A stretch of DNA of 64,000 bases from an uncultured virus (IMG/VR IMGVR_UViG_3300025769_000082) (taxonomy: Duplodnaviria; Heunggongvirae; Uroviricota; Caudoviricetes): IMG/VR virus record IMGVR_UViG_3300025769_000082; one strand, 5' to 3'. The notes under the pieces were generated by a model. It was not told the origin of the DNA. It did not search any database and worked only from the letters and a program-made list of their open reading frames with translations. Of this stretch, positions 15,921 through 62,205 are shown one piece after another. The translations under genes and the position numbers were made by a program. How positions within the stretch are numbered: position 1 is the first letter of the stretch; each line of letters begins with the position of its first letter.

Positions 15921-18065
15921 CTATTTCACGATGCCGTAGAGATTGATGGCCCCTGACGTGAGGTTGCCCGATGTGGAAATCAATCGGAAACCATTGACCG
16001 CCGCAACTGATTTCCAATCGCCGCCCATGGACCATGCAACACTGTTTCCGCCATTGTCAGAAAACGATGAAAGCGCCGTTACCTTGGTATATCGGTCGGT
16101 TGCGGCAGGATTGAAAATTCGGACCAGACTGCAAACGCCCCCTTCACTAGCGTTTGACGTGCCAGCGGCAGCGATGCGAAGTTCATCGTCATTATTTGCG
16201 GCCGTATCATCGTCGCTCCCGGCGCTATCCGCCGCCTTCGCCGCCCAATAATAGGCCGACGTTTCAAACGTCGAGCCCCCATCATCGGAGAACAGCAATT
16301 TCAATGGTTGTGCAGTAGTGTCCAAAAGAATGTTGACCAACTCAAGCTCATACACATCGTAGGTGCCATCAATACCCGTGGTGAAATCCAATGACGAAGA
16401 TGTGCTTGCAGTCTGCGTGTCCAAAAGAACTCGGCTTCCCGCTGGACGAGGCGTATAGAACCCCGTTGCATCGTGCGCTCGATACTCTCGGCTCTCTTTC
16501 GGCCACAGTGGAACCGGATCACGGGCGTCCGTAGTGCCTTCATTAATCGCATCGCCACTGGCGGGCCACACCCAAGCAGCTTCCGCACCGCTGTTCGTAA
16601 TCCAGACACTCCGACCAGCGACAGCACTCGGCAGTACAACACTGTCACCTTGATTAGCGCACGTAGAGATCAGCACGTTATCTGTCGTCAGCGCTTGCCC
16701 ACCTGCTTGTGTTTGTGTGGTGCTGGCTGTGACTGTTCCGACATCCATGATGAAGTTATCGGTAACTGTTAGATCACCTGGAACAGTAATATCGCCACTC
16801 AACTTGGCAGATGTAACGGTACCGTCGGCAGGAGTGCCTACGGACAGCGTAGAACCCGTCGTTGCTTCGACCTCGGCAGTACCAGTCGGTATCGCCGCAT
16901 CAAATGTCACAACTGCGCCAGACAACGACCACGTTGAACGGTGCTGCGTCACACCGTCGAACGATATGGTCGTGTTGTTCTCGGAACCAGGAGAAATAGA
17001 AAGTGTCAACTGCGTGGTCGTACCGCTGGTGTAGTCGGTGGTATCGACAAACGTATCCACCGTCATGTTACCGGCAGAGGCACCGAAGCCAACGCTGGTC
17101 CAGTCATCAGGTGTACCATCCGTATCCGCTATCAGCGTGGAACCAGAACCTGCCGCCGAGATAACCAACGACGCACCGAGGTCGATGGTCTCCGACCCCG
17201 CCGCCGTAACCGTGATAGCGTTGCCGTCGCCGGTCGTCTTCTTTAGGCTGATCCGCCATCCGTTACCTAACGTGGCGATACTTCCGAGGACAATGGAAAC
17301 TGCTCCACCAGAGGTATCAACACTTATCAACTCACCGTCTTGAGCCGCCGTCGGAGTGTAGGGGCTGTCAGCGAACGTGATGTAGGTCACGTCGTTGTAG
17401 ATGATGTTCTCAGCCGAGGCCGCAGCCGAGGCCGCACTTGCTGCAGCGTTGGTCTCACTGGTTGCGGCGTTGGTCTCACTAGTTGCAGCGTTGGTCTCTG
17501 AGGTCTGTGCGTTAGTCTCAGCCGACTCCGCAGCCGTCTGGGCTGCTTCCGCAGCGGCTTGAGCAGCTTCCGCCGCTGCCTGGGCGGTAGCAGTCCCAGC
17601 GACTTCGGTATCTACATAAGCCTTCGTGGCTGCATCCTGAGCCGACGTAGGGTCCGTCACATTCTTGATGGGCTTGGATGCCGCGTTCCAGTGCGCGTCT
17701 GCATAGTCTTCTTGCATAGCTTCGGACGCACGGTCCTCGGCTTCCTGGCTACGGTAGAACGCCTGGGTACTGTCGGTATCTAGATCAGCTTCCGTAAGGT
17801 TACCAGGAGCCGTGTAGTCCACTAGTCGTGTAGCCTTCGAGGAGTTCCGTCGAATTTGAATTACTGCACTACTGGCTGGGATAGAACCCGCATTGAAGCG
17901 GACAGTAGTCCCAGTGACAATCGTGTAGTCGTTCCCCGCTCCTTCAGTCTGGAGGGTACCAGCAACATACACTTCAACGTGGGACTCTTGGAGGTAGGAA
18001 AAGGAAATGGTGTAGTCGGTTGTTACACCGTCCCCGGTGTAGTCGTCAGTCGCAAGTTTTACCAT
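15921..18065 (-). CDS. Tail fibre with T7 gp17-like N-terminal adaptor
   Basis: YTGDGVTTDYTISFSYLQESHVEVYV gp17-type N-terminus, AATSETN repeats; C-terminal ~300 aa nearly identical to 59869-62205. Confidence 0.85.
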   Translation of the reverse strand: MVKLATDDYTGDGVTTDYTISFSYLQESHVEVYVAGTLQTEGAGNDYTIVTGTTVRFNAGSIPASSAVIQIRRNSSKATRLVDYTAPGNLTEADLDTDSTQAFYRSQEAEDRASEAMQEDYADAHWNAASKPIKNVTDPTSAQDAATKAYVDTEVAGTATAQAAAEAAQAAAEAAQTAAESAETNAQTSETNAATSETNAATSETNAAASAASAAASAENIIYNDVTYITFADSPYTPTAAQDGELISVDTSGGAVSIVLGSIATLGNGWRISLKKTTGDGNAITVTAAGSETIDLGASLVISAAGSGSTLIADTDGTPDDWTSVGFGASAGNMTVDTFVDTTDYTSGTTTQLTLSISPGSENNTTISFDGVTQHRSTWSLSGAVVTFDAAIPTGTAEVEATTGSTLSVGTPADGTVTSAKLSGDITVPGDLTVTDNFIMDVGTVTASTTQTQAGGQALTTDNVLISTCANQGDSVVLPSAVAGRSVWITNSGAEAAWVWPASGDAINEGTTDARDPVPLWPKESREYRAHDATGFYTPRPAGSRVLLDTQTASTSSSLDFTTGIDGTYDVYELELVNILLDTTAQPLKLLFSDDGGSTFETSAYYWAAKAADSAGSDDDTAANNDDELRIAAAGTSNASEGGVCSLVRIFNPAATDRYTKVTALSSFSDNGGNSVAWSMGGDWKSVAAVNGFRLISTSGNLTSGAINLYGIVK
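15940..16448. repeat. Direct repeat copy 1 (identical core, ~509 bp)
   Basis: By-eye identity with 59888-60396 (offset 43948); flanks ~15885-15939 and 16449-~16850 similar with mismatches. Confidence 0.92.
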
Positions 18066-18100
18066 GAAGACTCCATTGGGAGCCTTTATGGCCCCTCTTG

Positions 18101-21100
18101 TTAGTTAGCTAGATCAATGACTCGGAAGTCAGGGTTATCAATAACGAGGTTCCCATACCCCCGCTCAAAGGTAGAAATAAGTGTGGAGAAAGGTCGTAGC
18201 TTATTGGCTTGTTGAACGACCTCATCTACGGACGCTCGACCGGCACCTAGGCGAAAGACTTTCTCACCTAAGAGGGCTGTGTCAGCGGCTAGGCCACCAT
18301 TAACCCCGAGTGCTGTGGAGAACCAATGACCACTACGGCGGTACCTAGAAGCACCACCTAACTCAGCAGCTTGAGCGGCTGCGGATATAGGAGCCGACAG
18401 GTACGCCAAGAACCCTGAGCGGTCGAGGATTTCAAAGGCTGTGTCAGGAAGGTTCTCTTCCTCCCACATATCCGATACGTCCTCACCACGGAGCTTAGCT
18501 TTACCCATAGCAACAACAGAGCCCGCCACAAGAGTGAGCAACGCCGCTGAGGATGCCTGGACGTGTTGGCCCATAGCACCACCTTGGATCATTGGGGTGA
18601 TGAAGCGGTTCAACGTCGCAAAGCCGAACGTGTAAAACTGAAGTAGCGTCTTCATGAAGTCATTCGACATTAAGGTGGGCGTGTCCCCAATACCAGGGGT
18701 AACGATGGCACGGTTCATGTCGCGCTGAATAGCAATCTTGTAGACGTTAGCTAGTCGTACATCGAACTCACCGAAGTCAACATCTAGACGCCCGTTCTCA
18801 TCCAATCTGGAGAACTTCTTGAACTGGCCCGCTAGTTGCTCAGCTTCGGACTTACCGATACCTAAGGATGCTAATCGCGTCTTCTCGAAGTCCGTGAGCT
18901 TACTGTAGCCCATCGTCATTTCTCGAAGACGGTATGACATCTGAACGGCAACCGTTGTTTTCATAAAACGGTTCCAGAAAGGGAGTGCCCCCATGGTCGC
19001 TGAGGCCCCTGAGAGACGCTCACCAGCCCTGTCGATAGCATTCGTAATACGGTGCGTCATAGTCCCAGGGAGACCAATACCATACTGCTCAACCCGATAT
19101 AGGTCAGTGTCACCAAAGCGGCGACCGAGCATCATGGCGGAACTACCAGCCTCCAACGAATAGATGAAGGAGAGTAGTTCGTTGTGTTCTAGGTTACCCA
19201 TGGACTCCATGATCTCCTTCCCATGCTTAACAAACGCGGGTAGGATTTGATGGTGTAAGGCTACGGCCCCGACGTCCGTAAGGGACGTGAGACCGAAGCC
19301 AGAAGCAAACCGAATGACATTAGCTTGACGCATCTTCTTAGAGACCCAACGGAGAGCCGCCATACCGCCGTGACTATCCGCTTCGTACATACCGAGGAGT
19401 CGGTCCTTCATATGGTTTGTATCTTCAACCATTTGTTTAGACTCACTACGGTAACGATTAGCAAGCTTAGTGTCCCCTTTAGCTTCCGCTTCGTTGATTA
19501 GCGTACGGTAGTCATCTTCAATAGCGCCAATGACTGTCCGCTTGTTCATATCATTAGAGACTCCCCAGGCGTCGAACTCCAAACCCTTCTGTAGCCCAAA
19601 GACTTCACGAAGAGCGAGGTGACCCGAAAGCTGCTCGTACTGCGTGTTTAGAAGGTTAGGGAGGTCCCGTCGGAGGAATGATCGACCAAAGCCTCGGTCA
19701 GCTAAGGCCTCCTTACGGAGGGCGTCGTCGTTGATATGGATCACACGCTCTTTGAAGCGTCCTGTTTCCCCTACAACGTCATCAAGGACCGTACCCGTCG
19801 AAGGGACGTGCCGTCCTTTTGCCAACTGTCTGGCGATCTTCTCTACGATATCAGTGATACCGGGGAGCTTGTTGTGCTTCTTTAGCTCCCGCTTTATCCC
19901 ACGTACGGTCTTGGCGTTTTTGTTACGCTCTTTATTGTATGTACGTACAAGCTGCCGCTCTTGGAACTTTCGACCCTTGAGATACTCTTCTTGCATCTCC
20001 AAACGGCGAAGCTCGATCTGAACAGCCTCTAGCTTCCGTGCGAGACTCTGCTCCTCACGGATCAATGGGTTTAGACCAAACTGAGCTTCCTTAGCTGTGG
20101 CGTCTGCTGTAGCAGTTCCTATAGTCGTCGGAGTAGGCTCGGCGAGGTGACTTGCGGTCTTAGCCTCACCCAATGGAAGATCAAACGCAGTACTCTTCAC
20201 CTCACCACCTACGGGGATGAACTGCTGCTGACGGGCTAGGGTAGTCGTCCTAGCGGCCTCAGCGGCCTTGGCGAAGGCCCTAGCGTTCTTCTTAGCGACC
20301 TTAGTGGCCTCACGGGCTTTTCTATGACTAAGCGCTAACTCATCCCTCTTCTTGAGGGCTAGCTTGCGGGTAACCTTGACAGTTTCCCGGTCCACCAACT
20401 TAAGGGTGCGTAGGGTCTCACCAGCGGTTAGCTCGGACTGTTTTAGTTTCTCTTCAGCGCCCTTAAGCTCGTTCTCAAGCATTTCAGATTTCAGCCAGAA
20501 GCTGTCACCCGCATACTCGTCAGCTATCTCTCTATGGAGTTGAGGGTTAGTATCTGCAAGTTCATCGAACTCAGTCCGCGATAACTTCTTAGACTCTTCA
20601 AGCCATATATGGAACAGGTCGCTGTCGTGGTTGATAGCTACACGGTACAGGAAATTCTTAAACTCATCGAAATTCTCAGTGATCGTGTAGGGGTCCCAGG
20701 ACTGCATGACACCATAATCCCTACCAAGGGCTTTAGGCCTCGCCTGTTCTAATTCGATGTTTGGGTTAAGCTCAGACACCCGTTGGTCACGGGCTGCTCG
20801 AGCGTCAGCTATGATCTTATCTTGAGTCGCTTGTACAGTAGCAAAGTCATCAGAACCCCGCGCCGCCTTCTTAGCAGCGTTAGCAGTCTTTATGATGCTG
20901 TTGGTCTCAGCACGGATCATTGCACGGTCAGCAAGGAGCGAGGCTAAGTTATCTTCATCCCTGAGGACCCCAAGCTCCAACATCTTGGACTCGAAGAACT
21001 CATTAGCCTTGTGGATTTCCTCAGCGTACTGCTTTGAAGCAACCCTGATCTTTTCAAGCCCAGACTTCCCAAACGTCTCCGCGATACGCGCTTCTAGGGC

Positions 21101-22342
21101 GTCATCCACAATATCGTTGTGGAGAGAGCGGAGGGTCATTTCGTTGTAGGCGTTGGCAATCTCTCCGGACTTCTTAAATCCAGGTATACGACTGACACCT
21201 AGGTCTTTAACTAAGTTACGAAGGATACTTTCTCCAGTGACCTGAGCGGTCTTCCCTACGTTAGTGTAGAAGTCCCGAATGTCTTCAGCAGACAAGGTGG
21301 TAGCGTGACCAGCCCGATTAGCATTAGTAAAGATATGGGATGTATTGACCAACGCTGTGAATATCTTACGACCGACTTGACTAGCAGAGTTAAATGCACG
21401 ACCTGTCGGAGTCGCTTGGTTTATCTTCTGAGCAACAAAGTTATCACGCTCTCGGCCTCCTCCTCGAACCTTAACCTGATCAGGTCGCCCAAGGACACCA
21501 TCGGTGTTCTCTGCAGCGCTTACAGTACCAGGAGTCTGCTCGCCGCTGAAGGTCTCCGTACGGCCTTCACCAGGAGTGTAGACCGAAACGTCCTCATCTA
21601 TATTAGGGTGGAACGGGTTATCTGGGTTACTGGGATGGAGGGGATGCGTCGGGCTCCTTGCGAACGCAAAGGCCCCTAGACCGCCCGCAAGGACCGTGGA
21701 GGCCCCTATGTTCATGAAGGACTCTTCTAAGGTGCGGAGGTCTTGGAACTGGTGGAGAAGAGCCTCACTCACGCCTGTGAGGGCCGTGGTTTGCGTTAGG
21801 AAGCGCGTCAGCTTAACTGCGCGTGTAGCCTTACCAGCCACACCGACCACAGGGATATAGGTCGTGGGATCAAGTAAGGCTGTAGCGAAGGCACCAGTGA
21901 GTGACCCCGCGATGTTACCTTCCATTACGCGGAGAGCTTCACGCTCTTCCTCGATGGAGGTTACTCTAGCGTTGAACTGATCCTCATTGAACACGTCATC
22001 GAACAGACCGTCGTTGATGGCAAACGCCATATCCTGGGTCTTATCTTCGTCCCAATTTGATTGGATGTACTCAGCGACATTAAAGCCATCATCGATCACT
22101 TCAAAGTCTGGGTTATTCACGCGACGCTGAAGTGTAGCTTTTCCCGTACGGAGAGCTTCAATAGCGAAGTTCTCACGGACCGCCGCCGCTTGGAAGGCAT
22201 CGAAGAACGTCGGTGCTTCGTTCTCACTCAACGCGGCGAAACGAGAACGTCCCTCATTAGGGTCAAACGAGAAGGCCCCATTTACAGGAAGTTCCGTGCG
22301 GGGTGCCTCATCGACGAACAAGTCGTCGTTAGTCTCGGCCAT
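18101..22342 (-). CDS. Large internal virion protein (T7 gp16-like position)
   Basis: 1413 aa helical protein immediately upstream of tail fibre. Confidence 0.7.
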   Translation of the reverse strand: MAETNDDLFVDEAPRTELPVNGAFSFDPNEGRSRFAALSENEAPTFFDAFQAAAVRENFAIEALRTGKATLQRRVNNPDFEVIDDGFNVAEYIQSNWDEDKTQDMAFAINDGLFDDVFNEDQFNARVTSIEEEREALRVMEGNIAGSLTGAFATALLDPTTYIPVVGVAGKATRAVKLTRFLTQTTALTGVSEALLHQFQDLRTLEESFMNIGASTVLAGGLGAFAFARSPTHPLHPSNPDNPFHPNIDEDVSVYTPGEGRTETFSGEQTPGTVSAAENTDGVLGRPDQVKVRGGGRERDNFVAQKINQATPTGRAFNSASQVGRKIFTALVNTSHIFTNANRAGHATTLSAEDIRDFYTNVGKTAQVTGESILRNLVKDLGVSRIPGFKKSGEIANAYNEMTLRSLHNDIVDDALEARIAETFGKSGLEKIRVASKQYAEEIHKANEFFESKMLELGVLRDEDNLASLLADRAMIRAETNSIIKTANAAKKAARGSDDFATVQATQDKIIADARAARDQRVSELNPNIELEQARPKALGRDYGVMQSWDPYTITENFDEFKNFLYRVAINHDSDLFHIWLEESKKLSRTEFDELADTNPQLHREIADEYAGDSFWLKSEMLENELKGAEEKLKQSELTAGETLRTLKLVDRETVKVTRKLALKKRDELALSHRKAREATKVAKKNARAFAKAAEAARTTTLARQQQFIPVGGEVKSTAFDLPLGEAKTASHLAEPTPTTIGTATADATAKEAQFGLNPLIREEQSLARKLEAVQIELRRLEMQEEYLKGRKFQERQLVRTYNKERNKNAKTVRGIKRELKKHNKLPGITDIVEKIARQLAKGRHVPSTGTVLDDVVGETGRFKERVIHINDDALRKEALADRGFGRSFLRRDLPNLLNTQYEQLSGHLALREVFGLQKGLEFDAWGVSNDMNKRTVIGAIEDDYRTLINEAEAKGDTKLANRYRSESKQMVEDTNHMKDRLLGMYEADSHGGMAALRWVSKKMRQANVIRFASGFGLTSLTDVGAVALHHQILPAFVKHGKEIMESMGNLEHNELLSFIYSLEAGSSAMMLGRRFGDTDLYRVEQYGIGLPGTMTHRITNAIDRAGERLSGASATMGALPFWNRFMKTTVAVQMSYRLREMTMGYSKLTDFEKTRLASLGIGKSEAEQLAGQFKKFSRLDENGRLDVDFGEFDVRLANVYKIAIQRDMNRAIVTPGIGDTPTLMSNDFMKTLLQFYTFGFATLNRFITPMIQGGAMGQHVQASSAALLTLVAGSVVAMGKAKLRGEDVSDMWEEENLPDTAFEILDRSGFLAYLSAPISAAAQAAELGGASRYRRSGHWFSTALGVNGGLAADTALLGEKVFRLGAGRASVDEVVQQANKLRPFSTLISTFERGYGNLVIDNPDFRVIDLAN

Positions 22343-22508
22343 ACTTCACTTGTCTCCGTAGGTAGATAATGTAGACGAACATCATGATGGTTAGGACAGG
22401 CCAACCGTACACAAATATGTACACATTGGCCTCTTCATAGGTGGTCCCCGTCGATGCGGCGATCCACTTAAGTACACCCACGCAAATCCAGAAGACTGTG
22501 TCCGTCAT
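22329..22508 (-). CDS. Small membrane protein (59 aa)
   Basis: Read manually: MTDTVFWICVGVLKWIAASTGTTYEEANVYIFVYGWP... after GGAGG RBS. Confidence 0.55.
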   Translation of the reverse strand: MTDTVFWICVGVLKWIAASTGTTYEEANVYIFVYGWPVLTIMMFVYIIYLRRQVKYGRD

Positions 22509-22516
22509 AGTTCCTC

Positions 22517-24313
22517 CTAGGCGGCTGTGTCAGTGTCAAATCCAGTGTTGTCGTCAGTCGTCTCGGTCTCTTCTTGCTCACCCGTGATGGGTCCTAGATC
22601 GATCTCGAACTTTGCACCCGCACCTTCCTCCGTGGCACCAAACAACGCCCCAGCCCGACGGACTACGGCGTAAGGACCAACGGCACCTGAACTCGTCAGG
22701 ACCTGACCAGCAATCTCAGATATATGAGCCACCTTATCCAAAAACGTCGGGAACTTTTTTTGGAGCTTCTTAGCATCGTTGAAGTTATACACGTCGCGAA
22801 CTACAAGATGTCCGCGCTCATCTATGCGCCACGCAAAGTCACCTAGAGTAGCCTTCACCGAGAACTTAGAATCCCCGATCAGCTTAAAGGAAGAGGGATC
22901 GACGTCCTTGGTACCATTCGTGTAGTCCTTAGTGTAGGAGACACCCGCCCACTTGGTGGGACCAGCGGACACGTCAATACCCTGACGTTCCGCCGCACGA
23001 AACGCTACGTCCTTAATGTAAGTCTGTTCATTACTATTGAAGTAATCCGCGCCCCTCACATCGTCTAGGTCGAAGCCTAGAATGTGTGACATATAGCCAC
23101 GTATATGTGACGGAACTATGTCAGCGAGCAATGAGCCTTCAACCTTAGGCTCTTCGGACTCAGGAGCTTTAGGCTTCCTACGAGGAACTACGTCAGCGAG
23201 TGATGAGCCTTCAACCTTAAGCTCTTCGGACTCAGGAGCTTTAGGCTTCCTACGAGGTACCGGGAGACGGTACGCTTGCCGGTTAGTAGTCTCGGCCTCT
23301 AAAGATACCGAAAACTTATGAGAGAGTTTCTCGTCAGTGTACTCACGAGTAATGCTACCCATCGCTGGAACTTGCTCTGTGATCATATCGATCACTAAGC
23401 TCTGACCAACGTGAATCTTATCAGGGTTTTTGATATCGTTCAGATTAACCAGGTCTTCTACCGTCGTATTGAATTGCTGAGCAATCTTAGACAACGAGTC
23501 GCCGCGCTGGACTTCGTAATTCGAGAGCATGTCACTCCCAGTACCACCGACCAACACCTCATCACCAAAACGGTCATTGAAGGCGAGCTTAAACTCCTCG
23601 GTGTTACCAAAGAATTGCTGTGCTTCAATATCACGGCGGTTCTGAATACCTCTGTGATTTTCCTTATTAGATCGGTTTAGGATTTCCTCTGCTGCCAGCT
23701 TCGTCTCACCTTGTCGAACAAACTCAGTAAGACGTGGACCGATCAATGAGGGAGCGTTGTACGCGAGAGAAGTCAGGGCGATCATTTGGTGTTCAGGGAT
23801 GTACACGTCCTTACCGATCTTGTTCCTGACGATCTCTTCATACTCAGGGACGATGTTGTCAAACAATGCGCGGCTTTGAGTCGGCAACAGCCGATCCTTA
23901 CCCTCACGTATGTCATCGAAGTCCACACCAGGGAGAGAACGCTCCCAAAGCTCACGAGCCTCAGGAGAGTCCATATTGAAGCCTAGGCCTACCGTACGGT
24001 TGCCCTTATGGTCTTTATAGACTTCTAGGCGCTCACCCTCACGCTGCCGGATGAAATCATACAGGCGGTCACGATAGCGGTTACCGGGTTGGGCGTTTTT
24101 CCCATCCCGTGCGGAAGGACCATTCTCCATAATATGTTCCCTCTGAAGTGCTTGGAGTTTACTAAAAGCCCCAGAGAACGTCTTAGGAGCCCCACCGACG
24201 TGGCGGGTGATCCCCGCACTCGGGGAAATCCGTTCGTCCTCAGCAAGTCGGGAAACGGAGTCGTCATAGAAGTTCTGAACGAACTCCTCTTCCTTCACAG
24301 GATTCTTAATCAT
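22517..24313 (-). CDS. Virion-associated lysozyme with LysM domain
   Basis: REGERLEVYKDHKGNRTVGLGFN lysozyme motif; YEVQRGDSLSKIAQQFNTTVEDLVNLNDIKNPDKIHVGQSL LysM. Confidence 0.85.
   Translation of the reverse strand: MIKNPVKEEEFVQNFYDDSVSRLAEDERISPSAGITRHVGGAPKTFSGAFSKLQALQREHIMENGPSARDGKNAQPGNRYRDRLYDFIRQREGERLEVYKDHKGNRTVGLGFNMDSPEARELWERSLPGVDFDDIREGKDRLLPTQSRALFDNIVPEYEEIVRNKIGKDVYIPEHQMIALTSLAYNAPSLIGPRLTEFVRQGETKLAAEEILNRSNKENHRGIQNRRDIEAQQFFGNTEEFKLAFNDRFGDEVLVGGTGSDMLSNYEVQRGDSLSKIAQQFNTTVEDLVNLNDIKNPDKIHVGQSLVIDMITEQVPAMGSITREYTDEKLSHKFSVSLEAETTNRQAYRLPVPRRKPKAPESEELKVEGSSLADVVPRRKPKAPESEEPKVEGSLLADIVPSHIRGYMSHILGFDLDDVRGADYFNSNEQTYIKDVAFRAAERQGIDVSAGPTKWAGVSYTKDYTNGTKDVDPSSFKLIGDSKFSVKATLGDFAWRIDERGHLVVRDVYNFNDAKKLQKKFPTFLDKVAHISEIAGQVLTSSGAVGPYAVVRRAGALFGATEEGAGAKFEIDLGPITGEQEETETTDDNTGFDTDTAA
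23112..23257. repeat. Intragenic 72-bp tandem duplication
   Basis: Encodes VPRRKPKAPESEE(L/P)KVEGS(S/L)LAD twice. Confidence 0.85.
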
Positions 24314-24325
24314 CGTGTGTCCTTG

Positions 24326-39915: not shown

Positions 39916-40009
39916 CAGAGACTTGCCAAGGTGATGATAGCCATAACAAAGCACATGACGATTAGGATACCCGTCACAACCTCGAGTATTCGATCTACAA
40001 TGCTATACA

Positions 40010-47547: not shown

Positions 47548-47710
47548 GTTCTGCCTCCATATTAGTTATGCGACGTTGTAAGTTGTCAGCGTCACGACAC
47601 GCATCGAGGTATCTAATCCTGTAACCCTGAGGGTCTTCTGGTGGTTGGGGTTGAGGTGTATCTGGCTTGTTGAATCTATCGCTCAGATACTCATGATCGT
47701 CATAGGCCAC
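47369..47710 (-). CDS. Small ORF between the two RNAP halves
   Basis: GTG start after GAGGAG; coiled-coil-like N-half; 3' half overlaps RNAP C-part in another frame. Confidence 0.5.
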   Translation of the reverse strand: MAYDDHEYLSDRFNKPDTPQPQPPEDPQGYRIRYLDACRDADNLQRRITNMEAELELYRRVLPNPNTVRDRDAPPAHCGIATIHITGCCRCPKQCPSNTSPSEPVHPRRTTES

Positions 47711-48524
47711 TTACTGTCTCCTCATCGAGTTGCCAAGGTAGTGGGGGTGCAATCATCGGTAGTCGGTATGGTTGTGATGTCGATAACTCTTCGTTGATGG
47801 TCTTGAGAGCAGCAATAGCCTCGGGAGCGACACGTATCACTCGCTTCTGTTGTCCTCTGTGGGCGAACGAGTATAGGTAGAACCACCCACCCCCGTGTGT
47901 GATTGCTGTATGTAATAGGGCGGCACCAACATGCGCTCGGGTACCGGATGACCACTCAGTCCGTTTGATATCTTCCCGACCAGAACGCCACTTCTGAAAA
48001 ATCCTACGGGTTACGACACCTTTCTTAGAGCCAATAATCCTTGCTGCATCCTCAGAGGCCCGCCGCCAATTCTCAAAGTCGATCTCGTCACGGACGGCAT
48101 CAGCAATAGCTAGTGATACCCGAGTCACACCCGCATCCACCTCTACCGAGGATAAGGTGTAGCAGTTCAGGATTATCCGGACAGTGATCAGTGCTAGTTT
48201 ATCAGCGGGAAGGGCTGTAACACCAACAGCCCACCCAGGTTGTGGTCCACGCTTACCAGCACTTACCTTAGCCGAAGCTTGTAGATCGAGGATGCCCCTG
48301 AGTAGGCCCTGGTCCTCGGTACCCACGATGTCCCGAGCTATCCTCATACCAGCATCACCGTCACCAATACCGACCTCCGTCCGCGTCACTGATCCGTCCG
48401 GTCGGCGCTTAACCCGCCACTGCTTTTCACGGAACCGTTGGATGCCTTCCTCGACACCTGAAATCTCCAATTTCTTCTGAGCTTCAACTTGATGAATGTT
48501 CACAGTGTTCCGTTGGTGTGCCAT
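47700..48524 (-). CDS. T7-like RNA polymerase, N-terminal domain part
   Basis: QKKLE...GIQRFR, WS....AHVGAALL, PMIAPPLPW match T7 RNAP N-terminal landmarks; start 48524 after AAGGGG. Confidence 0.85.
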   Translation of the reverse strand: MAHQRNTVNIHQVEAQKKLEISGVEEGIQRFREKQWRVKRRPDGSVTRTEVGIGDGDAGMRIARDIVGTEDQGLLRGILDLQASAKVSAGKRGPQPGWAVGVTALPADKLALITVRIILNCYTLSSVEVDAGVTRVSLAIADAVRDEIDFENWRRASEDAARIIGSKKGVVTRRIFQKWRSGREDIKRTEWSSGTRAHVGAALLHTAITHGGGWFYLYSFAHRGQQKRVIRVAPEAIAALKTINEELSTSQPYRLPMIAPPLPWQLDEETVSGL

Positions 48525-48754
48525 TGATAACCCCTTGTTCCTATCGGCTCCAACGCATAACCCCGGCTTATCGGGGGCGGCGCATACGTCGTCTACGCTT
48601 CCAGATGTCATCGTGTGTCGCTTTCCTCGCTCGTTTCGCTAAAAACCTTAATACCTCACCCTTGCGTAGCGCCTGTTGCCCTCGTTCGTCGTGGCTCGGG
48701 TGATACACATTGATACACATTGATATATCATCAATCGGCTTTGATATATCATAG

Positions 48755-49270: not shown

Positions 49271-50389
49271 CTAAGAGGTGTTTAATAGATCAGCCGCACG
49301 TTGGGACACCTCAGCTACATCCACATGGATGTACTTAGAGGTCATCGAGGTCCCTGTGTGACCGAGGAGAGGCATAATCTGAGCGATGGATAACCCCCGC
49401 ATAGCGAGCTTGGTCGCAAACGTATCACGCAGGGTATGTACCGTAGCGGTACCGCGTGTCTTAACGATGGACCTATCATCGTTAAGCCCTGCTCGGTTCA
49501 TCGCGGCACGTATGGACTCGGTGGAGTGAGCCCTATGGTTCTTAGGGTCCACCTTGCACTTATACCACCGTGGGAACACATACATATTAGCCCCTCGGTT
49601 GTCCCAACGCCGACGTATGACCGAGTACAGTCGATCGGTCATAATCAAGTTAGCCTCATTACCGACCTTCTGCCGGTACAAGTTGATCGTGCGGCAGTTC
49701 ATGGACACAGATGACCATGATGTAGATACCGCCTCGCCGTGGCGACAACCAGTGTCCAACAGGTATACCACAAGATCATAGGCGTCTTGCATCATCTGCC
49801 GCCGAGGTGTCCCCATGTCCGAGGAGGCTCCTTCGACCGGACGATGTGGATCGAGTTCGTGGAGTAGCCGCTCCTCCTCTTCCAGCGTCAGCGACCTTGT
49901 CTTCGGTTTGTAACGGAATGTCGGAAAGGACACGACCGGTTGTACATCATACCCCCAATGGTCCTTAGCCAACTTCCACACACGCTTAAGCTGTTGTACC
50001 TCGATACAGATCGTAGACTCAGCCAATCCCTCAGCAAACCGAGCCTCGACCAACGTACTGATTAAAGCAGACGTGAGATCAAGTAGTGGCGTACTGAGTG
50101 GTAAACGGAAACCCGGGCCGTCACCAAACAGCTTATCACGCCGCCACTGGGCTTGGCGTTTGGTGGACGGTAGTCTCAGAGTACCAAGGTATCGATCCAT
50201 AGCGTCTACCAGACGTACACGCTCCTTATCACCGAACTGATGAGAATTGAGGCGTCGCTCATACTCGGTAGCTTCTACTCTACGAGCATCAGTCTTATTC
50301 GTACGTTTGGTAGACCCACGGTATCGCTTACCACCAACGGTAAAATCGTACCACCAATAGTTAGAGCGTTGTTTCCTGATAAGTGACAT
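49271..50389 (-). CDS. int: Tyrosine integrase
   Basis: Arm-binding N-terminus, TGCR, HTLRDT, LGH, Y catalytic motifs. Confidence 0.95.
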   Translation of the reverse strand: MSLIRKQRSNYWWYDFTVGGKRYRGSTKRTNKTDARRVEATEYERRLNSHQFGDKERVRLVDAMDRYLGTLRLPSTKRQAQWRRDKLFGDGPGFRLPLSTPLLDLTSALISTLVEARFAEGLAESTICIEVQQLKRVWKLAKDHWGYDVQPVVSFPTFRYKPKTRSLTLEEEERLLHELDPHRPVEGASSDMGTPRRQMMQDAYDLVVYLLDTGCRHGEAVSTSWSSVSMNCRTINLYRQKVGNEANLIMTDRLYSVIRRRWDNRGANMYVFPRWYKCKVDPKNHRAHSTESIRAAMNRAGLNDDRSIVKTRGTATVHTLRDTFATKLAMRGLSIAQIMPLLGHTGTSMTSKYIHVDVAEVSQRAADLLNTS

Positions 50390-54954: not shown

Positions 54955-55565
54955 CCCTGACCCGGTCACCCTGGTGACCCCTGGTCCTACGTCTTAGCGT
55001 CCCTGGTCACCCTGCCCTGCACCAGCGATGTCTATCTAATATCATGCGGCAGCATCGGTATCCCTTGGTCACCCTGGCACCTAGCGTCCCCGTCGGTTTA
55101 GTGTGCCGCCGACGAGCCCGAAAGCCACCGAGTGACCCGTCGTCAACTAATCTGAGCCAAGCCGACTTTTTCTGAACGGCCTTGTTCGAGAGGGGGGGCA
55201 TGGGGGATTTCAGCGTTCGAGTTGGGGAGGGAACCTATAGCCTCATGAAATTTATTCTAAAATCACCATCTAAGGTCCCATGGTCACCCTAAGCCCCCAA
55301 CGTACCCCAGGTCCCTCCAGGTTGCCCCAGGATCAACAACTCGACCCTCCCGGCTACCCTGGGTACCCCTGGGGCGACTTAGGGCCTCCTGGGGCATCCT
55401 AGGGCCTCCTAGGGCATCTTAAGGTCTCCTAGGGCATCTTAAGGTCTCCTAGGTACCCCTGGGGCGACTTAGGGCCTCCTAGGGTCTCCTGAGAGTCCTA
55501 AGGGAGCGCGGGGTCCACACCCGGCCTGATGGGACTGGGGGACACCCGCACTCTACCTTAGGGTC
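54955..55565. repeat. Probable genome-terminus region of T7-like phage with short-repeat arrays
   Basis: Non-coding, between TerL and first early gene; 10-bp-period AGGGCCTCCT/AGGGCATCTT/AAGGTCTCCT array at ~55361-55500 and CCCTGGTCAC repeats at ~54955-55090. Confidence 0.7.
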
Positions 55566-55596
55566 TTAGGTCAGCTTTCTGCTGACTCTAAGTCGG

Positions 55597-57483
55597 TCAG
55601 TGGACGGTCATAAAGACCTCGGCTCGGAAGCCATCCGCCTTACGTTTACCGCGACGGGTCCTCGGACCTAGCTTGAAGCCTTCCTCATAGTTCTCGAGGA
55701 AGTCGTCTACCTCATCTTGCATTCGTTGGTCGTGGATAGCCTGAGCGGCGTCGTCCACGTCTTGACCCATAGCGAGTGTGAAATGAGCGACGGCCCCTGC
55801 AAGGGCGTCGAGACGGTCTTCATGCTTTAGGCACTTACGATCTCTAGTGATATGCGTAAGTTGATATAACAGGCTGTAAGCCAGCTCATCGTCACGTCGT
55901 CGGGCTTCGTGGCGGGCAACAGACTCATCTAGAACCAGACGGTGCTGGGTCATTACGGTCTCAAGGGTATCAATGATACGCGCCTCTTTCTGCCCCTTAG
56001 CCCATGCGGACTCCTTGACGGTACAACCTCCAGGCCAGACCTTAGCCAGTACAGGGCCGAATGCAGCAACCCACATACCTTGACCATAGTTAGGTTCGAC
56101 CTCAACGACGTTCACGTTGAAACGCTTAGCGTCCACAGCGATCTGCGTCATTGCCTCGGCTGGGTCCCCCGCATGACCCCCAGAATGGAGACAGTACAGG
56201 ATACCATTGAGGTTCTTTACGACGGCCCATGCCGTCTCATCCTTACCCCGACCAGCAGGGTCTACAAACAACACTGAGCCCTCATAGTGTTCCCAGGTGT
56301 CATCCACCATCAATGGACGAAGCATAAAGTCCCCTGAGAACCCTACGTTGGGGATATCCTTGACGACGTTCTTGGCGTCAGAGTGTCTCCCCCATTGAAG
56401 GGTAAGGGGTGCTTTCGTCGGATTGATTGAGAAGATCATGAGGTCATGTTGCTTAAGTGGATACTTCTCAGCATCGGATAGCGCAGTATCCAACATATAC
56501 TGAAGGGAATACCAAGCCCTACCACCAGCCTCCAGCTTACTAAGCTCATCCAAGGAGAAGCGAGCCGGGTCAGTAATCTGACCGTAATCCATATCACCTT
56601 GGTCATGGAGTTCCCTGAGGTAGAACGCGAGAATGTTTACACGTTCGTCAGTGTCCTCGACCTTAAGTTCGTAGTTCTCGACCTTATCATGGGTTGGGTA
56701 ACGAATAGGGATAGCGAAACATCGAAAGCCCTGCTCCGTAACCTGACGGTTATAGACGGACTCCTCGGTCTGTGGTGTCCCTAAGTAGAAGATATCCCCA
56801 CGACCATGCTCAGTCTTAACAATGGCCTCAAACTCCCGACAGATGTCGATGAGTTGTTGTCGTGCTTCCTCGGACTTAGAGTTCTGAGGTATCTCGATAT
56901 CATCCGCAATAATGGTTGTAGCACGGTCACCCGTAACCTGGCCCAGGATAGCCGCAGCACGAACTGAGGGGCTCTGGGACAAGCTCGATAGAGCGACGTC
57001 AAACCGATCCGCTTGGTCACGCCTATGCGCCCCATCCTCCCTATGACCCTCTAGGAGCCATTGGTAGATCGGCATAGAACTCAGGAGTGCCCGTAGCTGA
57101 GACACGAAGGCTTTGGACTTATTAGCCGTAGCCGACGTCACAAGTATCTTCTCGTCCCTTGGGTTCCTGGCAAGCAACCAAGCACCAAAAGCTGCAGTGA
57201 TGTAGGACTTACCGACACCACGGAAACAGCGAATGATATCCTTCCGGTGCTCATCACGAAGAGCCTCACGCTCAGGGACACTTAGGTACGCCCATTCGTG
57301 GCTGTCTGCCCCATACTGAAGACGTGCAGCGATCTCAAGCTGAGCCTTGGTAGGCGTTGGTAGACCTAGGTGTTCCCAGGTGACTACCAGCGCGTTCCTA
57401 AAGTCCTCGAAGATCGACCATACGTCCTCAGGGAACCGTTGCTCCCAATGAGGACGGCCATCTACGAGAGACGGTTTAAGCAT
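55597..57483 (-). CDS. terL: Terminase large subunit (T7 gp19-like)
   Basis: FRGVGKSYIT, IIADDIE, LGTPQTE, DPAGRGKDET, QKEARIIDTLE, HEDRLDAL. Confidence 0.95.
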   Translation of the reverse strand: MLKPSLVDGRPHWEQRFPEDVWSIFEDFRNALVVTWEHLGLPTPTKAQLEIAARLQYGADSHEWAYLSVPEREALRDEHRKDIIRCFRGVGKSYITAAFGAWLLARNPRDEKILVTSATANKSKAFVSQLRALLSSMPIYQWLLEGHREDGAHRRDQADRFDVALSSLSQSPSVRAAAILGQVTGDRATTIIADDIEIPQNSKSEEARQQLIDICREFEAIVKTEHGRGDIFYLGTPQTEESVYNRQVTEQGFRCFAIPIRYPTHDKVENYELKVEDTDERVNILAFYLRELHDQGDMDYGQITDPARFSLDELSKLEAGGRAWYSLQYMLDTALSDAEKYPLKQHDLMIFSINPTKAPLTLQWGRHSDAKNVVKDIPNVGFSGDFMLRPLMVDDTWEHYEGSVLFVDPAGRGKDETAWAVVKNLNGILYCLHSGGHAGDPAEAMTQIAVDAKRFNVNVVEVEPNYGQGMWVAAFGPVLAKVWPGGCTVKESAWAKGQKEARIIDTLETVMTQHRLVLDESVARHEARRRDDELAYSLLYQLTHITRDRKCLKHEDRLDALAGAVAHFTLAMGQDVDDAAQAIHDQRMQDEVDDFLENYEEGFKLGPRTRRGKRKADGFRAEVFMTVH

Positions 57484-57697: not shown

Positions 57698-58173
57698 TAA
57701 AACTCCAGTGTTACTGCGAGGGCTGCTACAGCAATAGCTACAGCCAAGGCTTCGAGACCCTCAACGTACCTGTTGGAATGACCCGGCCAGTCCTGACGCT
57801 CCACCCATGGACGAAGCCAGGGCTGGCAGACATTCGCTGCATAGATCAGGATGAACCCGAAGGTGCCTAAGGTCATTGGGTATACGTCGTAGACCGTAAG
57901 TCCACATAGGAATACACCAGCGACTAAGGACGGCCAGGGACGGATTAACATAGGCTTAAACATATCCCACTTATTGTACCCAGCAGTCAGGCACCGCCCG
58001 TATAGACCGCCCACAACAAGAGCAACCACACAGTTGTAAGTCGTACCAAAGACGCTGAGGACGCATAAGGTGTAACCAAGGATTGTGGAGCCCTTGATCC
58101 TAAAGGGCCAGCCTCCATCAGAGACACGCCACGCTGGGAGGAGAACGCTGAGGAAGCTAGTTAGAAATGTCAT
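57697..58173 (-). CDS. Multi-pass membrane protein (homolog of 11858-12298)
   Basis: Shared WRVSDGGW, QPWLR and NRYVE motifs. Confidence 0.7.
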   Translation of the reverse strand: MTFLTSFLSVLLPAWRVSDGGWPFRIKGSTILGYTLCVLSVFGTTYNCVVALVVGGLYGRCLTAGYNKWDMFKPMLIRPWPSLVAGVFLCGLTVYDVYPMTLGTFGFILIYAANVCQPWLRPWVERQDWPGHSNRYVEGLEALAVAIAVAALAVTLEF

Positions 58174-58565
58174 TGATGATCCTTCCAGACCTTTACGCCC
58201 TTCTCGACCGAGCGGCCTACGATATAGCCACCTATACCGATCTTAAGGAGATCGAAGACGGCCAAGAGGACTGACTCTGGCATGTTCTCGGGTTGAATAC
58301 CGAACCAGTAGAGAAATAGGAGACCAAGGAACGAAAGCATAGTGATTGGTCGCCAATTACGTTGGAGCCAACTCTCACCTTGAGCCTCTGCGACGATGAT
58401 CTGCGCCGCCGCTTCAATCTCTTTCATCTGACCTGTGAGGACCATTTCCTGCAGCTTCGCCTTAATAGCGGCGGCTTGGTCCTTGTCCTCTACAGATTGA
58501 TCAATGACACTGAATATTCCTTTGAGAAGAGGAGCAGCGACGGCTGTAAGAATTCCTCCAATCAT
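58170..58565 (-). CDS. 3TM-type holin
   Basis: AEAQGESWLQRNWRP and GIGGYIVGRSVEK motifs; start MIGG likely. Confidence 0.8.
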   Translation of the reverse strand: MIGGILTAVAAPLLKGIFSVIDQSVEDKDQAAAIKAKLQEMVLTGQMKEIEAAAQIIVAEAQGESWLQRNWRPITMLSFLGLLFLYWFGIQPENMPESVLLAVFDLLKIGIGGYIVGRSVEKGVKVWKDHQ

Positions 58566-58566
58566 A

Positions 58567-58941
58567 TTAAGCTCCAGAGTTAATATTGACAAGGATGACG
58601 AAGTAATTATAAGGAGCGTCTTTATGAGTCGCTAGACGCCAGACTGATAAAAGATTGCCTGAGTCTTTAGCCACATAAGTATAGATATGCTCTTCAAGAG
58701 TAACCTCAAGAATCACTTGGAATTGTATACAGTCCCCTTTACTGAGTAAGGTGTGGTAGAAGTTTGAGGCTTCCTTGAAGCCCTTAGTCTCATTCTTTAC
58801 CGCTAACTCTAGAATAGCACTCTCAGATACACAGACCCAACTGGTCCTACCTGTTTCCCCAGGTTCGTATGCGCTAGCTGGATTCAAGCCATACGTAAGC
58901 ATTACCACCACGGCCAATACCGCAGCGATGAAGTTCTTCAT
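58567..58941 (-). CDS. Secreted hypothetical protein
   Basis: N-terminal signal peptide, two Cys. Confidence 0.65.
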   Translation of the reverse strand: MKNFIAAVLAVVVMLTYGLNPASAYEPGETGRTSWVCVSESAILELAVKNETKGFKEASNFYHTLLSKGDCIQFQVILEVTLEEHIYTYVAKDSGNLLSVWRLATHKDAPYNYFVILVNINSGA

Positions 58942-59212: not shown

Positions 59213-59226
59213 TATTTATTACCAAT

Positions 59227-59859
59227 TTACTTCTTGATGCCGTAGACGGCGATGGTGCCAGACGCCATGTTGCCACTGAATTTGAATTGAAGACCATTAT
59301 AAACAGCACCAACAGTGTATGCTCCCCCGTAATAAAACCCACGGGAAATAGAACTTGTGGCTTCTACATATGCGCCTGTCATATGAAACTGAAAATACGG
59401 CGTAGCACCAGCCATGCGACATTGAGCAATAAAGGATACTCCACCTTCAGAAGCATCATTGCTCACACCTCCTGCTGTAAAACTAAATGAAGCGGCTCCG
59501 TTATTGTTGACAGCGGTTGTCGTACCCGCTTGATTGGTTTCAGTGCCGCCAGCATGATAGTTACCCGCTGTTTCATAGGTAGCCCCGAGGTCATCGGACA
59601 CCAGCATCTCTAGACCTTGCGCGTCCGTCGATGGAACGATGTTTGTAGCAATTACTTCAATTACGTCAAACGTGCCATCACCCATCGCCGCGTCTGCAAA
59701 ATCCAATGACGCGGATGTGCTGGCGGTTTGTGTGTCTATCAGAACACGATTTCCCGGCAATGCCGCCGCCAGCCGCTCCGCGTAAGTATTAACGCCAGAC
59801 TGGTCGATGGTTTCACCTAAAACACCGCCGATCAGGTTCTTTGAGATTGTAGTTGCCAT
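59227..59859 (-). CDS. Secondary tail protein carrying a paralog of the tail-fibre tip domain
   Basis: RVLIDTQTASTSASLDF...SGTIAVYGIKK parallels RVLLDTQTASTSSSLDF...SGAINLYGIVK. Confidence 0.75.
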   Translation of the reverse strand: MATTISKNLIGGVLGETIDQSGVNTYAERLAAALPGNRVLIDTQTASTSASLDFADAAMGDGTFDVIEVIATNIVPSTDAQGLEMLVSDDLGATYETAGNYHAGGTETNQAGTTTAVNNNGAASFSFTAGGVSNDASEGGVSFIAQCRMAGATPYFQFHMTGAYVEATSSISRGFYYGGAYTVGAVYNGLQFKFSGNMASGTIAVYGIKK

Positions 59860-59868
59860 GATCTTTTC

Positions 59869-62205
59869 CTATTTCACGATACCATAAAGATTGATGGCCC
59901 CTGACGTGAGGTTGCCCGATGTGGAAATCAATCGGAAACCATTGACCGCCGCAACTGATTTCCAATCGCCGCCCATGGACCATGCAACACTGTTTCCGCC
60001 ATTGTCAGAAAACGATGAAAGCGCCGTTACCTTGGTATATCGGTCGGTTGCGGCAGGATTGAAAATTCGGACCAGACTGCAAACGCCCCCTTCACTAGCG
60101 TTTGACGTGCCAGCGGCAGCGATGCGAAGTTCATCGTCATTATTTGCGGCCGTATCATCGTCGCTCCCGGCGCTATCCGCCGCCTTCGCCGCCCAATAAT
60201 AGGCCGACGTTTCAAACGTCGAGCCCCCATCATCGGAGAACAGCAATTTCAATGGTTGTGCAGTAGTGTCCAAAAGAATGTTGACCAACTCAAGCTCATA
60301 CACATCGTAGGTGCCATCAATACCCGTGGTGAAATCCAATGACGAAGATGTGCTTGCAGTCTGCGTGTCCAAAAGAACTCGGCTTCCCGCTGGACGTGGC
60401 GTATAGAACCCCGTTGCATCATGCGCTCGATACTCCCGGCTCTCTTTCGGCCACAATGGGACAGGATCACGGGCGTCCGTAGTGCCTTCGTTGATTGCGT
60501 CACCACTCGCGGGCCATACCCACGCAGCTTCCGCCCCGCTGTTTGTAATCCAGACACTTCGACCAGCCGCAGCACTCGGCAACACAACACTGTCACCTTG
60601 ATTAGCGCACGTAGAGATCAGCACGTTATCTGTCGTCAGTGCTTGCCCACCTGCTTGTGTTTGTGTGGTGCTAGCCGTGACTGTTCCAACATCCATGATG
60701 AAGTTATCGGTGACGGTCAGATCGCCTGGGACAGTAAGATCGCCACTCAACTTCGCAGATGTAACCGTGCCATCGGCGGGAGTACCCACGGACAGAGTAG
60801 TACCAGTTACAGCTTCAACCTCTCCTACTCCTGCGGGAATAGCAGCATCAAAGGTTACGGTGACGTTGGATACGGTGTAAGTGGAATGGTGTTGGAATAC
60901 CCCATCAAAGAAGATTTGTACGTTGTTCTCTGATCCTGGGGCAGTAGACAATGTTACGGTAGTAGACGAACCCGCCGTAAAATCTACGCCGTCCGTCAAA
61001 GTATCAACCGTCATATCCCCCGCGCCACCCCCGAAAGATACACTAGCCCAGTCATCAGGAGATAAATCTATATCTCCAGTATATGTTGCAGCAGAACCAG
61101 ACACCCCGAGCGTGTCGCTAGCCCCGAGATTAATGGTATCGGTCCCGTTAGGAGTTACCGTTACTGCGTTACCGTCTCCTGTAGACTTTTTAATGGTGAT
61201 CCGCCACCCATTCCCCGCAGTAGCAATACTAGGTAGGTTAACGGTGACAGCACCCCCCGAGGTGTCTACACTGATTAACTCCCCATCCTGTGTAGTAGCG
61301 AGTGTATAGGGGCTGTCAGAATTGGTAATATAGGTTACGTCGTTAAACAGTATCTTGTCGGCAGAAGCCGCCGCTGCCGCCGCACTCGCCGCCGCGTTGG
61401 TCTCAGACGTACTGGCGTTTGACGCCGAGGTACTGGCGGCGCCCGCAGACGCCGCCGCGTTTGTCTCGGCTGTCTCAGCCGCCGCCTGTGCCGCCTCCGC
61501 CGCGCTCTGCGCTGTCTCAGCCGCCGTCTGGGCCGCATTCACGCCATACGCCATAGCCCGAACTTGATAATTATTCGTCCCGACAGTCGTATTCGCCGAA
61601 AAAGTGAGGCTTGTCCCCGAGACAGTGTAATCTGTCACCGGGTCCATGATGTTTCCGTTGTGGTCAAAGACGAAAAGGATGTTTTCGTCCGTCCCCATGT
61701 TCTCGGAGAGGGTAAACGGCCCCGTCGTCCCGTCCCCGGAGAGGCGATCAGCCAAAACAGTCGCGTCTACACTCTCAGGAGACGCAAAAATCTGCCAATA
61801 TGAGTTTGTCGTGAAGTCCGTCGCGAACGCCCCGGACGTATGCGCCACGATGCACACATAACTCGCGCCGTCCACTTGCACCACGTCTGACAATGCATAG
61901 TCTGTCGCCGTGACCCAAGCCCCCAAGAAATTCAGATTGGTGTTCAAAAGCGCCAAAACGTCCGACCCAATCTGATCGACGTCGATGGACCCCCCTTTCA
62001 AGTACCCATCGTCGCCAATCTGTGTCCGAACGAAATCAACAATGTCAGCGATCCGCCCCCGGTGGTGGGCAAACTCCGCGTCGAGTTTGTCTCCGGGCTG
62101 TTGATCCGTCGGATTACTCGTTGAGTAATCTTCAAAATCATATTGCTGTGTGGGTGCTGTAGGGGCCGCCATCCAAATGCCTCCCGCCGGGTTAGGGTCG
62201 GTCAT
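59869..62205 (-). CDS. Tail fibre with outer-phage N-terminus
   Basis: N-terminus unrelated to gp17-type; C-terminal part shared with 15921-18065; start may be 62172. Confidence 0.8.
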   Translation of the reverse strand: MTDPNPAGGIWMAAPTAPTQQYDFEDYSTSNPTDQQPGDKLDAEFAHHRGRIADIVDFVRTQIGDDGYLKGGSIDVDQIGSDVLALLNTNLNFLGAWVTATDYALSDVVQVDGASYVCIVAHTSGAFATDFTTNSYWQIFASPESVDATVLADRLSGDGTTGPFTLSENMGTDENILFVFDHNGNIMDPVTDYTVSGTSLTFSANTTVGTNNYQVRAMAYGVNAAQTAAETAQSAAEAAQAAAETAETNAAASAGAASTSASNASTSETNAAASAAAAAASADKILFNDVTYITNSDSPYTLATTQDGELISVDTSGGAVTVNLPSIATAGNGWRITIKKSTGDGNAVTVTPNGTDTINLGASDTLGVSGSAATYTGDIDLSPDDWASVSFGGGAGDMTVDTLTDGVDFTAGSSTTVTLSTAPGSENNVQIFFDGVFQHHSTYTVSNVTVTFDAAIPAGVGEVEAVTGTTLSVGTPADGTVTSAKLSGDLTVPGDLTVTDNFIMDVGTVTASTTQTQAGGQALTTDNVLISTCANQGDSVVLPSAAAGRSVWITNSGAEAAWVWPASGDAINEGTTDARDPVPLWPKESREYRAHDATGFYTPRPAGSRVLLDTQTASTSSSLDFTTGIDGTYDVYELELVNILLDTTAQPLKLLFSDDGGSTFETSAYYWAAKAADSAGSDDDTAANNDDELRIAAAGTSNASEGGVCSLVRIFNPAATDRYTKVTALSSFSDNGGNSVAWSMGGDWKSVAAVNGFRLISTSGNLTSGAINLYGIVK
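59888..60396. repeat. Direct repeat copy 2 (identical core)
   Basis: Matches 15940-16448. Confidence 0.92.

Follow-up and report, generated by a model that had tools for sequence, protein, structure and literature searches.

In the uncultured viral contig IMGVR_UViG_3300025769_000082 (IMG/VR; 64,000 nt, and referred to in its full length as the window), a whole T7-like podophage genome lies nested inside that of a second, unrelated podophage, the two meeting at a segment shared by their tail-fibre genes. This raises the question of whether one phage has recombined into the other, or whether two separate genomes were joined during assembly. We find that the junctions are copies of an exact 509 nt repeat, that each genome closes on itself once the repeat is resolved, and that the two recur separately in independent assemblies. 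The window is therefore probably the product of two separate phage genomes threaded into one path by the assembler, and the join is unsupported, not disproved. The shared fibre tip itself is a solid instance of real, recent gene exchange between unrelated phages.

Two podophage genomes at an exact repeat

Alignment of the two junctions with MAFFT, together with a listing of mismatches, shows that positions 15940-16448 and 59888-60396 are identical at 509 of 509 nt, in direct orientation and 43,948 nt apart from start to start; the final mismatch to the left of the first copy is at 15939 and the first mismatch to its right is at 16449. The first-pass annotation had picked out this core by eye, as direct repeats, each in the 3' end of a tail-fibre gene, that bound an inner genome of about 43.95 kb, and the alignment confirms the edges and gives a period of 43,948 bp. 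The core is embedded in a longer, graded homology (15881-17585 against 59829-61533) with 81.2% identity over 1711 columns, and because the adjacent 400 nt diverge by about 10%, a run of 509 nt without a difference is not due to chance. When the inner and outer sequences are compared in a self-BLAST of the whole window, the only match beyond this 1.7 kb fibre homology is one of 58 nt at 79% identity (59699-59756, beside the fibre), which aligns to each copy of the repeat.

All of the late genes lie on the minus strand, and each fibre gene reads into genes of the other phage. Fibre B, which has a T7 gp17-type N-terminus matching PF03906, is followed by the outer-phage lysis and terminase genes, and Fibre A, which has an outer-type N-terminus with no match to PF03906, by the inner lysis and terminase genes, so forming the reciprocal hybrid junctions that had been proposed at first reading. 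The existence of two independent head, terminase and lysis modules is likewise borne out by PHROG scans (38 and 30 open reading frames, ORFs) and a Pfam scan (34 ORFs), which identify two sets of large terminase (TerL), portal and capsid genes (Table 1).

Read along the minus strand, the inner genome runs from p210 through lysis, the large terminase TerL1, the probable terminus, early genes, the integrase, RNA polymerase, replication, head, tail and internal virion proteins to Fibre B. Its replication and metabolism genes encode a single-stranded DNA (ssDNA)-binding/annealing protein, a primase/helicase, an endonuclease, a DNA polymerase, an exonuclease, a MazG-like protein and a ribonucleotide reductase, and its structural genes encode the portal, scaffold, capsid, tail tube A and B and internal virion proteins, followed by Fibre B. 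The structural and packaging genes are in T7 order (PF03906, PF22530, and phrog_449, 267, 446, 457 and 342), with the link from fibre to TerL restored only after the repeat is resolved, and a single-subunit RNA polymerase of the Autographiviridae type is present, though split.

The presence of a tyrosine integrase in an element flanked by direct repeats could be taken to reflect integrase-mediated insertion of the T7-like phage at an att site in the fibre gene of the other phage. However, the integrase gene (49271-50389) lies in the middle of the element, about 9.5 kb from the nearer junction and in the same place as in relatives with free genomes, and the probable terminus, marked by a repeat array at 55358-55490, is also internal, in agreement with the earlier view that the junctions are not att sites. 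Moreover, in place of a short att core there are 509 nt of coding sequence, themselves part of a graded homology of 1.7 kb, and the genome is permuted at the fibre gene and not beside the integrase. Such an insertion is thus extremely improbable, and we rejected it on its anatomy.

Independent contigs and the case for an assembly join

An independent public viral contig (G002; 40,947 bp) contains the outer phage without the inner one. Its positions 1-16054 correspond to window positions 16054-1 and its positions 39793-40947 to window positions 64000-62846, both at 100% identity, such that the outer phage closes on itself from window position 64000 through 23,738 bp of G002 to window position 1. 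Both ends of the window fall within outer-phage genes, and the ORF beginning at 63328 extends into G002 as a 580 aa CobS/CbbQ-like AAA protein. The 23.7 kb stretch found only in G002 has 21 ORFs, 12 of which have PHROG matches and 10 Pfam matches, and encodes a 955 aa protein, a virion protein, a second tyrosine integrase, a helix-turn-helix repressor, a dGTP diphosphohydrolase-like protein, a resolvase, an SNF2 helicase, a DUF2800 nuclease, an Enc34-type ssDNA-binding protein, a family-A DNA polymerase, a primase/helicase, and CobT-like (VWA) and CobS/CbbQ-like (AAA) proteins. No host-like flank was found among these 21 ORFs, and in this other assembly the outer genome runs unbroken across its integrase region. 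Resolution of the repeat gives an outer genome of 43,790 bp (16,448 + 3,604 + 23,738) and an inner genome of 43,948 bp, compared with 87,738 bp for the joined circle.

The inner phage is similarly found alone. One contig (G001, locus L003) is 99.8% identical to window positions 16356-40094, and another, from a different assembly (L006), is 100% identical to positions 16353-23985; both contain inner sequence only, and L006 confirms that the Fibre B allele of the window extends 96 nt into the core.

Gene order in more distant relatives agrees with the resolved arrangement. We examined six T7-like relative loci with TerL proteins 55-62% identical to TerL1, and in five of them gp16 and a fibre with a gp17-type N-terminus are followed, 4.3-5.7 kb on, by a T7-type TerL, the sixth having too little upstream sequence. 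Four of the relatives continue from TerL to an integrase, and three of these four on to an RNA polymerase; the three long contigs of T7-like relatives are 44.1-46.1 kb. The sole relative of the outer phage (L077), with a TerL2 83% identical and a fibre that matches Fibre A at 83% identity over its first 223 residues, has on one 17 kb contig the cobS/T region, the fibre, about 6 kb of unrelated genes, and outer-type lysis genes with TerL2, and contains no T7-like insert. Judged by gene order, the resolved arrangement is the norm in both lineages. The geometry is thus, as had been suggested, that of a single crossover between two circles which resolves to two intact phages: the inner gene set is full, the outer genome closes through G002, and the relatives show the resolved orders.

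The same observations bear on whether the window could represent one large natural phage with two structural gene sets. Although its sequence is continuous and its late genes are all on one strand, each set is found alone in independent contigs, and G002 closes the outer genome without the inner one. The outer genome has a guanine plus cytosine (GC) content of 0.576 and the inner one of 0.516, and there are two each of the terminases, portals, capsid genes, integrases and DNA polymerases. A single large phage is scarcely credible on these grounds, and was also rejected on anatomy.

A join made during assembly could arise as follows. Each genome would form a circle in the assembly graph, the T7-like one by way of its collapsed terminal repeat, and as both circles would share one edge the graph would take the form of a figure-eight. 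One arbitrary turn at the shared edge would send the path into the inner circle, which it would tour in whole, and on its return to the shared edge the sole unused exit would be into the outer phage, giving a nested arrangement with two letter-identical copies. The copies would necessarily be identical, because the same edge is printed twice. The window has the letter-identical repeat expected of such a path, both of its components are complete and self-closing, and they are separate in independent assemblies (G001 and L006 for the inner, and G002 for the outer phage). If the reads were short, the contig contains no linkage information across 509 identical bases, whatever the true arrangement. 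A highly similar region in co-occurring viruses is named as a cause of chimeric contigs (PMC5610896), and repeat regions are described as yielding fragmented assemblies and chimeric contigs (PMC10104058).

The ends of the independent contigs are suggestive in this regard. L006 ends at 16353, 96 nt inside the core, and G002 ends at 16054, 115 nt inside it from the opposite side, both about 100 nt into the core as expected if those assemblies failed to traverse the repeat. The argument is a soft one, because the two offsets fit no single obvious k-mer size. The entire Fibre A gene, with 640 nt upstream, is also absent from G002; we looked for a repeat that would explain the break at 62846 and found none, and the fibre region may be micro-diverse in the G002 sample.

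Searches for additional copies of the junctions were negative. Sequence patterns at the core edges had one match each among viral contigs, only to G002 and to the contig of L006, neither of which crosses the core, and patterns for the core centre and left boundary had no matches among metagenome contigs. In the viral-contig collection there is no other record with Fibre A positions 60397-62845, and in a search for near-identical contigs covering 40-60 kb of the window, p210 gave three loci (all at 63% identity), TerL1 50 loci (74% at best) and the Fibre A N-terminus one locus (81%), none of them near-identical.

Several points weigh against an assembly join. Besides the lack of fit to a single k-mer size, the chimera base rate in the benchmark cited is below 5%. 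If long reads or wide inserts spanned the 509 nt, the contig would itself constitute linkage evidence. Furthermore, both phages encode Gp2.5-like annealing proteins and exonucleases, and with these recombination functions and an evident common host, real crossovers here are to be expected at some frequency.

Exchange of the fibre tip and the question of a cointegrate

Over their last 511 aa, Fibres A and B are 86% identical, and codon-by-codon comparison resolves this homology into three tiers of divergence. In the first (Fibre B residues 204-413) there is about 38% nucleotide difference with many amino acid changes, and in the second (residues 414-540) about 10% nucleotide difference, with 33 of the 35 changed codons synonymous; the third is the 509 nt core, with zero differences. 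Past the core, identity is about 86% over the 19 coding nucleotides that remain and the next 40 nt after the stop, a stretch that takes in the opening ~10 codons of the following gene. The distal part of the fibre has thus been exchanged more than once, the latest exchange being a patch that matches one protein domain, and because there are no substitutions in the core this latest transfer was very recent. The fibres also have the hallmarks of distal-module mosaicism, namely sharply bounded near-identity in otherwise unrelated genomes, behind adaptors specific to each lineage.

In an AlphaFold model built with 46 aligned sequences, the core corresponds to an all-β domain (pLDDT ~96) preceded by a linker of much lower confidence (~50), and the exchanged core, as modelled, matches one β-sandwich tip domain. 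A Foldseek search of this domain against the Protein Data Bank (PDB) gave no match at E <= 0.001. A wide fold search (VIA) found a generic likeness to lectin, galectin or GH32 C-terminal β-sandwiches (best Z 8.2, root mean square deviation 3.4 Å over 127 residues), and as Z <= 8.2 is within the range that VIA calls common, we claim no specific receptor chemistry. The predicted fold is compatible with a carbohydrate-binding receptor tip, with nothing specific proven.

Variation at the tip is also seen between G001 and the window. The two differ at 51 of 23,739 nt, with 45 of the differences in 16362-16704 and six in the other 23.4 kb. The G001 tip allele is 87% identical over 16356-16704 (G001 1-551 against window 16154-16704) and cannot be aligned by BLAST below 16356, and at six sites in 16488-16692 G001 agrees with the outer-phage copy and not with the inner copy in the window, so this region is a fine mosaic. 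G001 is independent proof of tip swapping in nature. A pattern search with its divergent tip matched only G001 itself.

Related tips are present in a third, much larger phage (G003, G005 and G004, at loci L007, L008 and L011 respectively), as two tandem proteins of 439 and 323 aa (locus positions 9596-12232) that are 50-63% identical to the shared tip and to p210. G003 is an 89 kb fragment with a CheckV completeness of 52%, and neither of the two terminase types of the window was found in this fragment. Two unrelated podophages and, at lower identity, a larger third phage hence draw on one pool of fibre-tip domains. The shared tip implies that the two podophages share a host, and that traffic in receptor modules is ongoing.

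The genes downstream of the two fibres, p521 in the outer phage and p210 in the inner, begin with a shared peptide of about 10 residues (MATVVSKNLI and MATTISKNLI; 15881-15939 and 59829-59887) and are otherwise unrelated. A 24-residue match to this type of start is found again in the third phage, after its tandem tip genes (L007 12237-12308). The shared start may serve in the docking of a second receptor-binding protein.

These data also bear on whether the window is a real cointegrate, in which a circularised T7-like phage underwent one homologous crossover in the 509 nt fibre segment of the other phage, to give an 87.7 kb circle or a nested prophage that a second crossover could resolve. The geometry is exactly that required, the direct repeats being the homology and the fibre operons being hybrid at both junctions. 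Circular intracellular forms are expected from the presence of integrases in both phages, and both carry the annealing and exonuclease genes noted above. The 1.7 kb of graded homology with its three divergence tiers indicates repeated recombination at this place, and the swap of tip alleles between G001 and the window, with just six mismatches in a 23.4 kb backbone, shows that such events are recent. However, neither hybrid junction was found in any independent contig in the viral and metagenome pattern searches, and in G002 the outer phage forms a closed genome with no host flanks. The joined molecule, at 87.7 kb, is about twice the size of the relatives' genomes, and therefore unlikely to be packaged. 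Single-crossover intermediates are expected to be rare beside their parents from the general biology of T7, and such a transient form would not be expected to dominate an assembly; in any case, a cointegrate cannot be distinguished from the resolved pair with reads shorter than the core. We therefore regard a cointegrate as unlikely.

The first-pass annotation had described the locus as a cointegrate intermediate of receptor-module exchange, with an assembler mis-join at least as likely. The exchange of the module is supported, as a completed exchange of a patch more than as an intermediate captured in progress; the mis-join is the better-supported reading, as both genomes self-close and recur separately and the hybrid junctions are in no independent contig. 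If the join is an artefact, contigs of this kind, twice the expected size and composed of two self-closing genomes that meet at an exact repeat, need to be divided before being recorded as a new large phage or as a 'phage in phage'. There is only a small chance that the contig is faithful, and represents an 87.7 kb cointegrate of two unrelated temperate podophages that was abundant enough in a natural community for assembly, for example as a T7-like prophage nested in the fibre gene of another prophage. A true cointegrate would be a rare natural snapshot of a single-crossover intermediate of receptor-module exchange, and a nested prophage a route to lysogeny for a T7-like phage without its own att site.

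Features of the two genomes and comparison with known systems

The principal features of the window are listed in Table 1.

Table 1. Coordinates of features of the outer and inner podophages in the window
Feature	Position	Strand	Details
Outer podophage, late region	1-15939	-	p521, lysis, TerL2, portal, capsid protein, internal virion proteins
Outer capsid protein	5889-6962	-	PHROG/Pfam scans
Outer portal	8129-10258	-	PHROG/Pfam scans
Outer TerL2	10252-11847	-	Overlaps portal
Outer lysozyme	12298-12750	-	PHROG/Pfam scans
p521, outer gene downstream of fibre	14346-15911	-	100% identical in G002; GC 0.566, outer-like
Extended graded homology, copy 1	15881-17585	-	Partner 59829-61533; first ~10 codons of downstream gene, intergenic spacer, C-terminal 511 fibre codons
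Fibre B, 714 aa	15921-18065	-	T7 gp17-type N-terminal adaptor (PF03906, E 1.9e-26, residues 8-155), inner phage's own; shared distal part
Core repeat, copy 1	15940-16448	-	Fibre B residues ~540-709, C-terminal β-sandwich tip domain (modelled); phrog_14820 on residues 541-712
Inner T7-like temperate podophage	16449-59887	-	Circularly permuted; one unit with one core copy is 43,948 bp
Inner major capsid protein	30626-31615	-	PHROG/Pfam scans
Inner portal-type adaptor	34065-35594	-	PHROG/Pfam scans
Single-subunit RNA polymerase, two ORFs	45883-48611 (47700-48611 and 45883-47547)	-	PF14700, PF00940 (E 3.4e-83)
Inner tyrosine integrase	49271-50389	-	phrog_1, PF00589
Non-coding stretch, TerL1 to early genes	55201-55596		10-nt periodic repeats at 55358-55490, CCTAGGRGNC-like units
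Inner large terminase TerL1, T7 gp19 type	55597-57483	-	PF22530, E 3.6e-32; phrog_38
Inner holin	58170-58592	-	Three transmembrane segments; PHROG/Pfam scans
p210, small second tip protein, inner	59227-59859	-	phrog_14820; paralogue of shared tip (40% identity) behind N-terminal MATTISKNLI; GC 0.496, inner-like
Fibre A, 778 aa	59869-62205	-	No PF03906; CBM5/12 motif (PF02839); N-terminus outer phage's own; shared distal part
Core repeat, copy 2	59888-60396	-	Same tip domain at end of Fibre A; phrog_14820 on residues 605-776
Outer podophage, right part	60397-64000		Fibre A N-terminal part, divergent control region with 50-nt tandem repeat, plus-strand genes

In the inner phage, the RNA polymerase is encoded by two ORFs of 303 and 554 aa, separated by about 150 nt in which stop codons interrupt the polymerase frames and a different frame contains a small ORF. 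In the relatives the two halves match adjacent stretches in the same frame, for example at L060 11766-12575 and 12582-14252, and the interruption could be due to a small insertion or a defect, or the gene could be a split one. The non-coding DNA that separates TerL1 from the early genes, with its 10-nt periodic repeats, is a probable collapsed terminal repeat or concatemer junction of the T7-like genome. A 72 nt tandem duplication (94% identical; 23112-23255) lies within a 598 aa internal virion protein (22517-24313) that has lysozyme and transglycosylase matches, and G001 has the duplication too.

In the outer phage, the genes for the CobS/CbbQ-like AAA protein (580 aa) and a CobT-like VWA protein (631 aa) are adjacent (window 63328-64000 and G002 36814-40465); a CobS/CobT-like gene pair is known in some marine podophages. 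A 50 nt tandem repeat (98% identical; 62387-62486) between Fibre A and the outer plus-strand genes may be an operator or an origin-like element. ARAGORN reports a 96 nt tRNA-Leu(GAG) on the plus strand at 885-980, within and antisense to a GC-rich 493 aa minus-strand ORF, and this is probably a false call.

Neither phage has a close cultured relative. The best matches to TerL2 are at 56% (a Microcystis phage), and TerL1 matches at 41% at best among cultured phages, these being Mesorhizobium, Rhizobium, Limnohabitans and Roseobacter podophages. At the DNA level, window positions 15000-19000 matched four records with coverage of 2% or less. In bacterial genomes, a query with the tip found no relative, and a query with TerL2 gave one candidate and no loci. 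The closest parallels to the inner phage are four uncultured temperate T7-like phages in which the integrase gene lies between the right end and the gene for RNA polymerase (L034, L060, L062 and L071). They have the same order of TerL, a p242-like gene, integrase and RNA polymerase, and share with the resolved inner phage the order gp16, gp17-type fibre and TerL. The inner phage departs from them in that its RNA polymerase is interrupted, and its TerL is only 55-62% identical to theirs.

The arrangement of the window resembles the chimeric contigs of metagenomes and viromes, in which two co-occurring viruses likewise have a highly similar region at which the contig switches from one to the other. 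Ordinary chimeric contigs are fusions of two halves, whereas here the contig makes a full tour of one circle and returns, leaving whole genomes nested. A physical counterpart is known in the Campbell-type insertion of a phage into a resident prophage by general recombination, as in the tandem and double lysogens of int-defective lambda. In these lysogens a single crossover likewise leaves copies of the homology, in direct orientation, on both sides of the inserted genome, but the partners are homologous throughout and the lysogens were selected in the laboratory, whereas here the partners are unrelated, the homology is confined to 1.7 kb of the fibre and the linkage is putative.

For the fibre tip, the precedent is the classic mosaicism of tail fibres, in which distal modules have been exchanged among the fibres of P2, Mu, P1, lambda and the T-even phages. 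The domain-sized exchange described here is an already known kind of event, and a case of ordinary tail-fibre mosaicism, with a sharply bounded and near-identical receptor end mounted on lineage-specific N-terminal adaptors. It differs from the classic cases in that the latest patch is exactly one domain with zero differences, in that three tiers of divergence are present, and in that the tip family extends to the larger phage G003.

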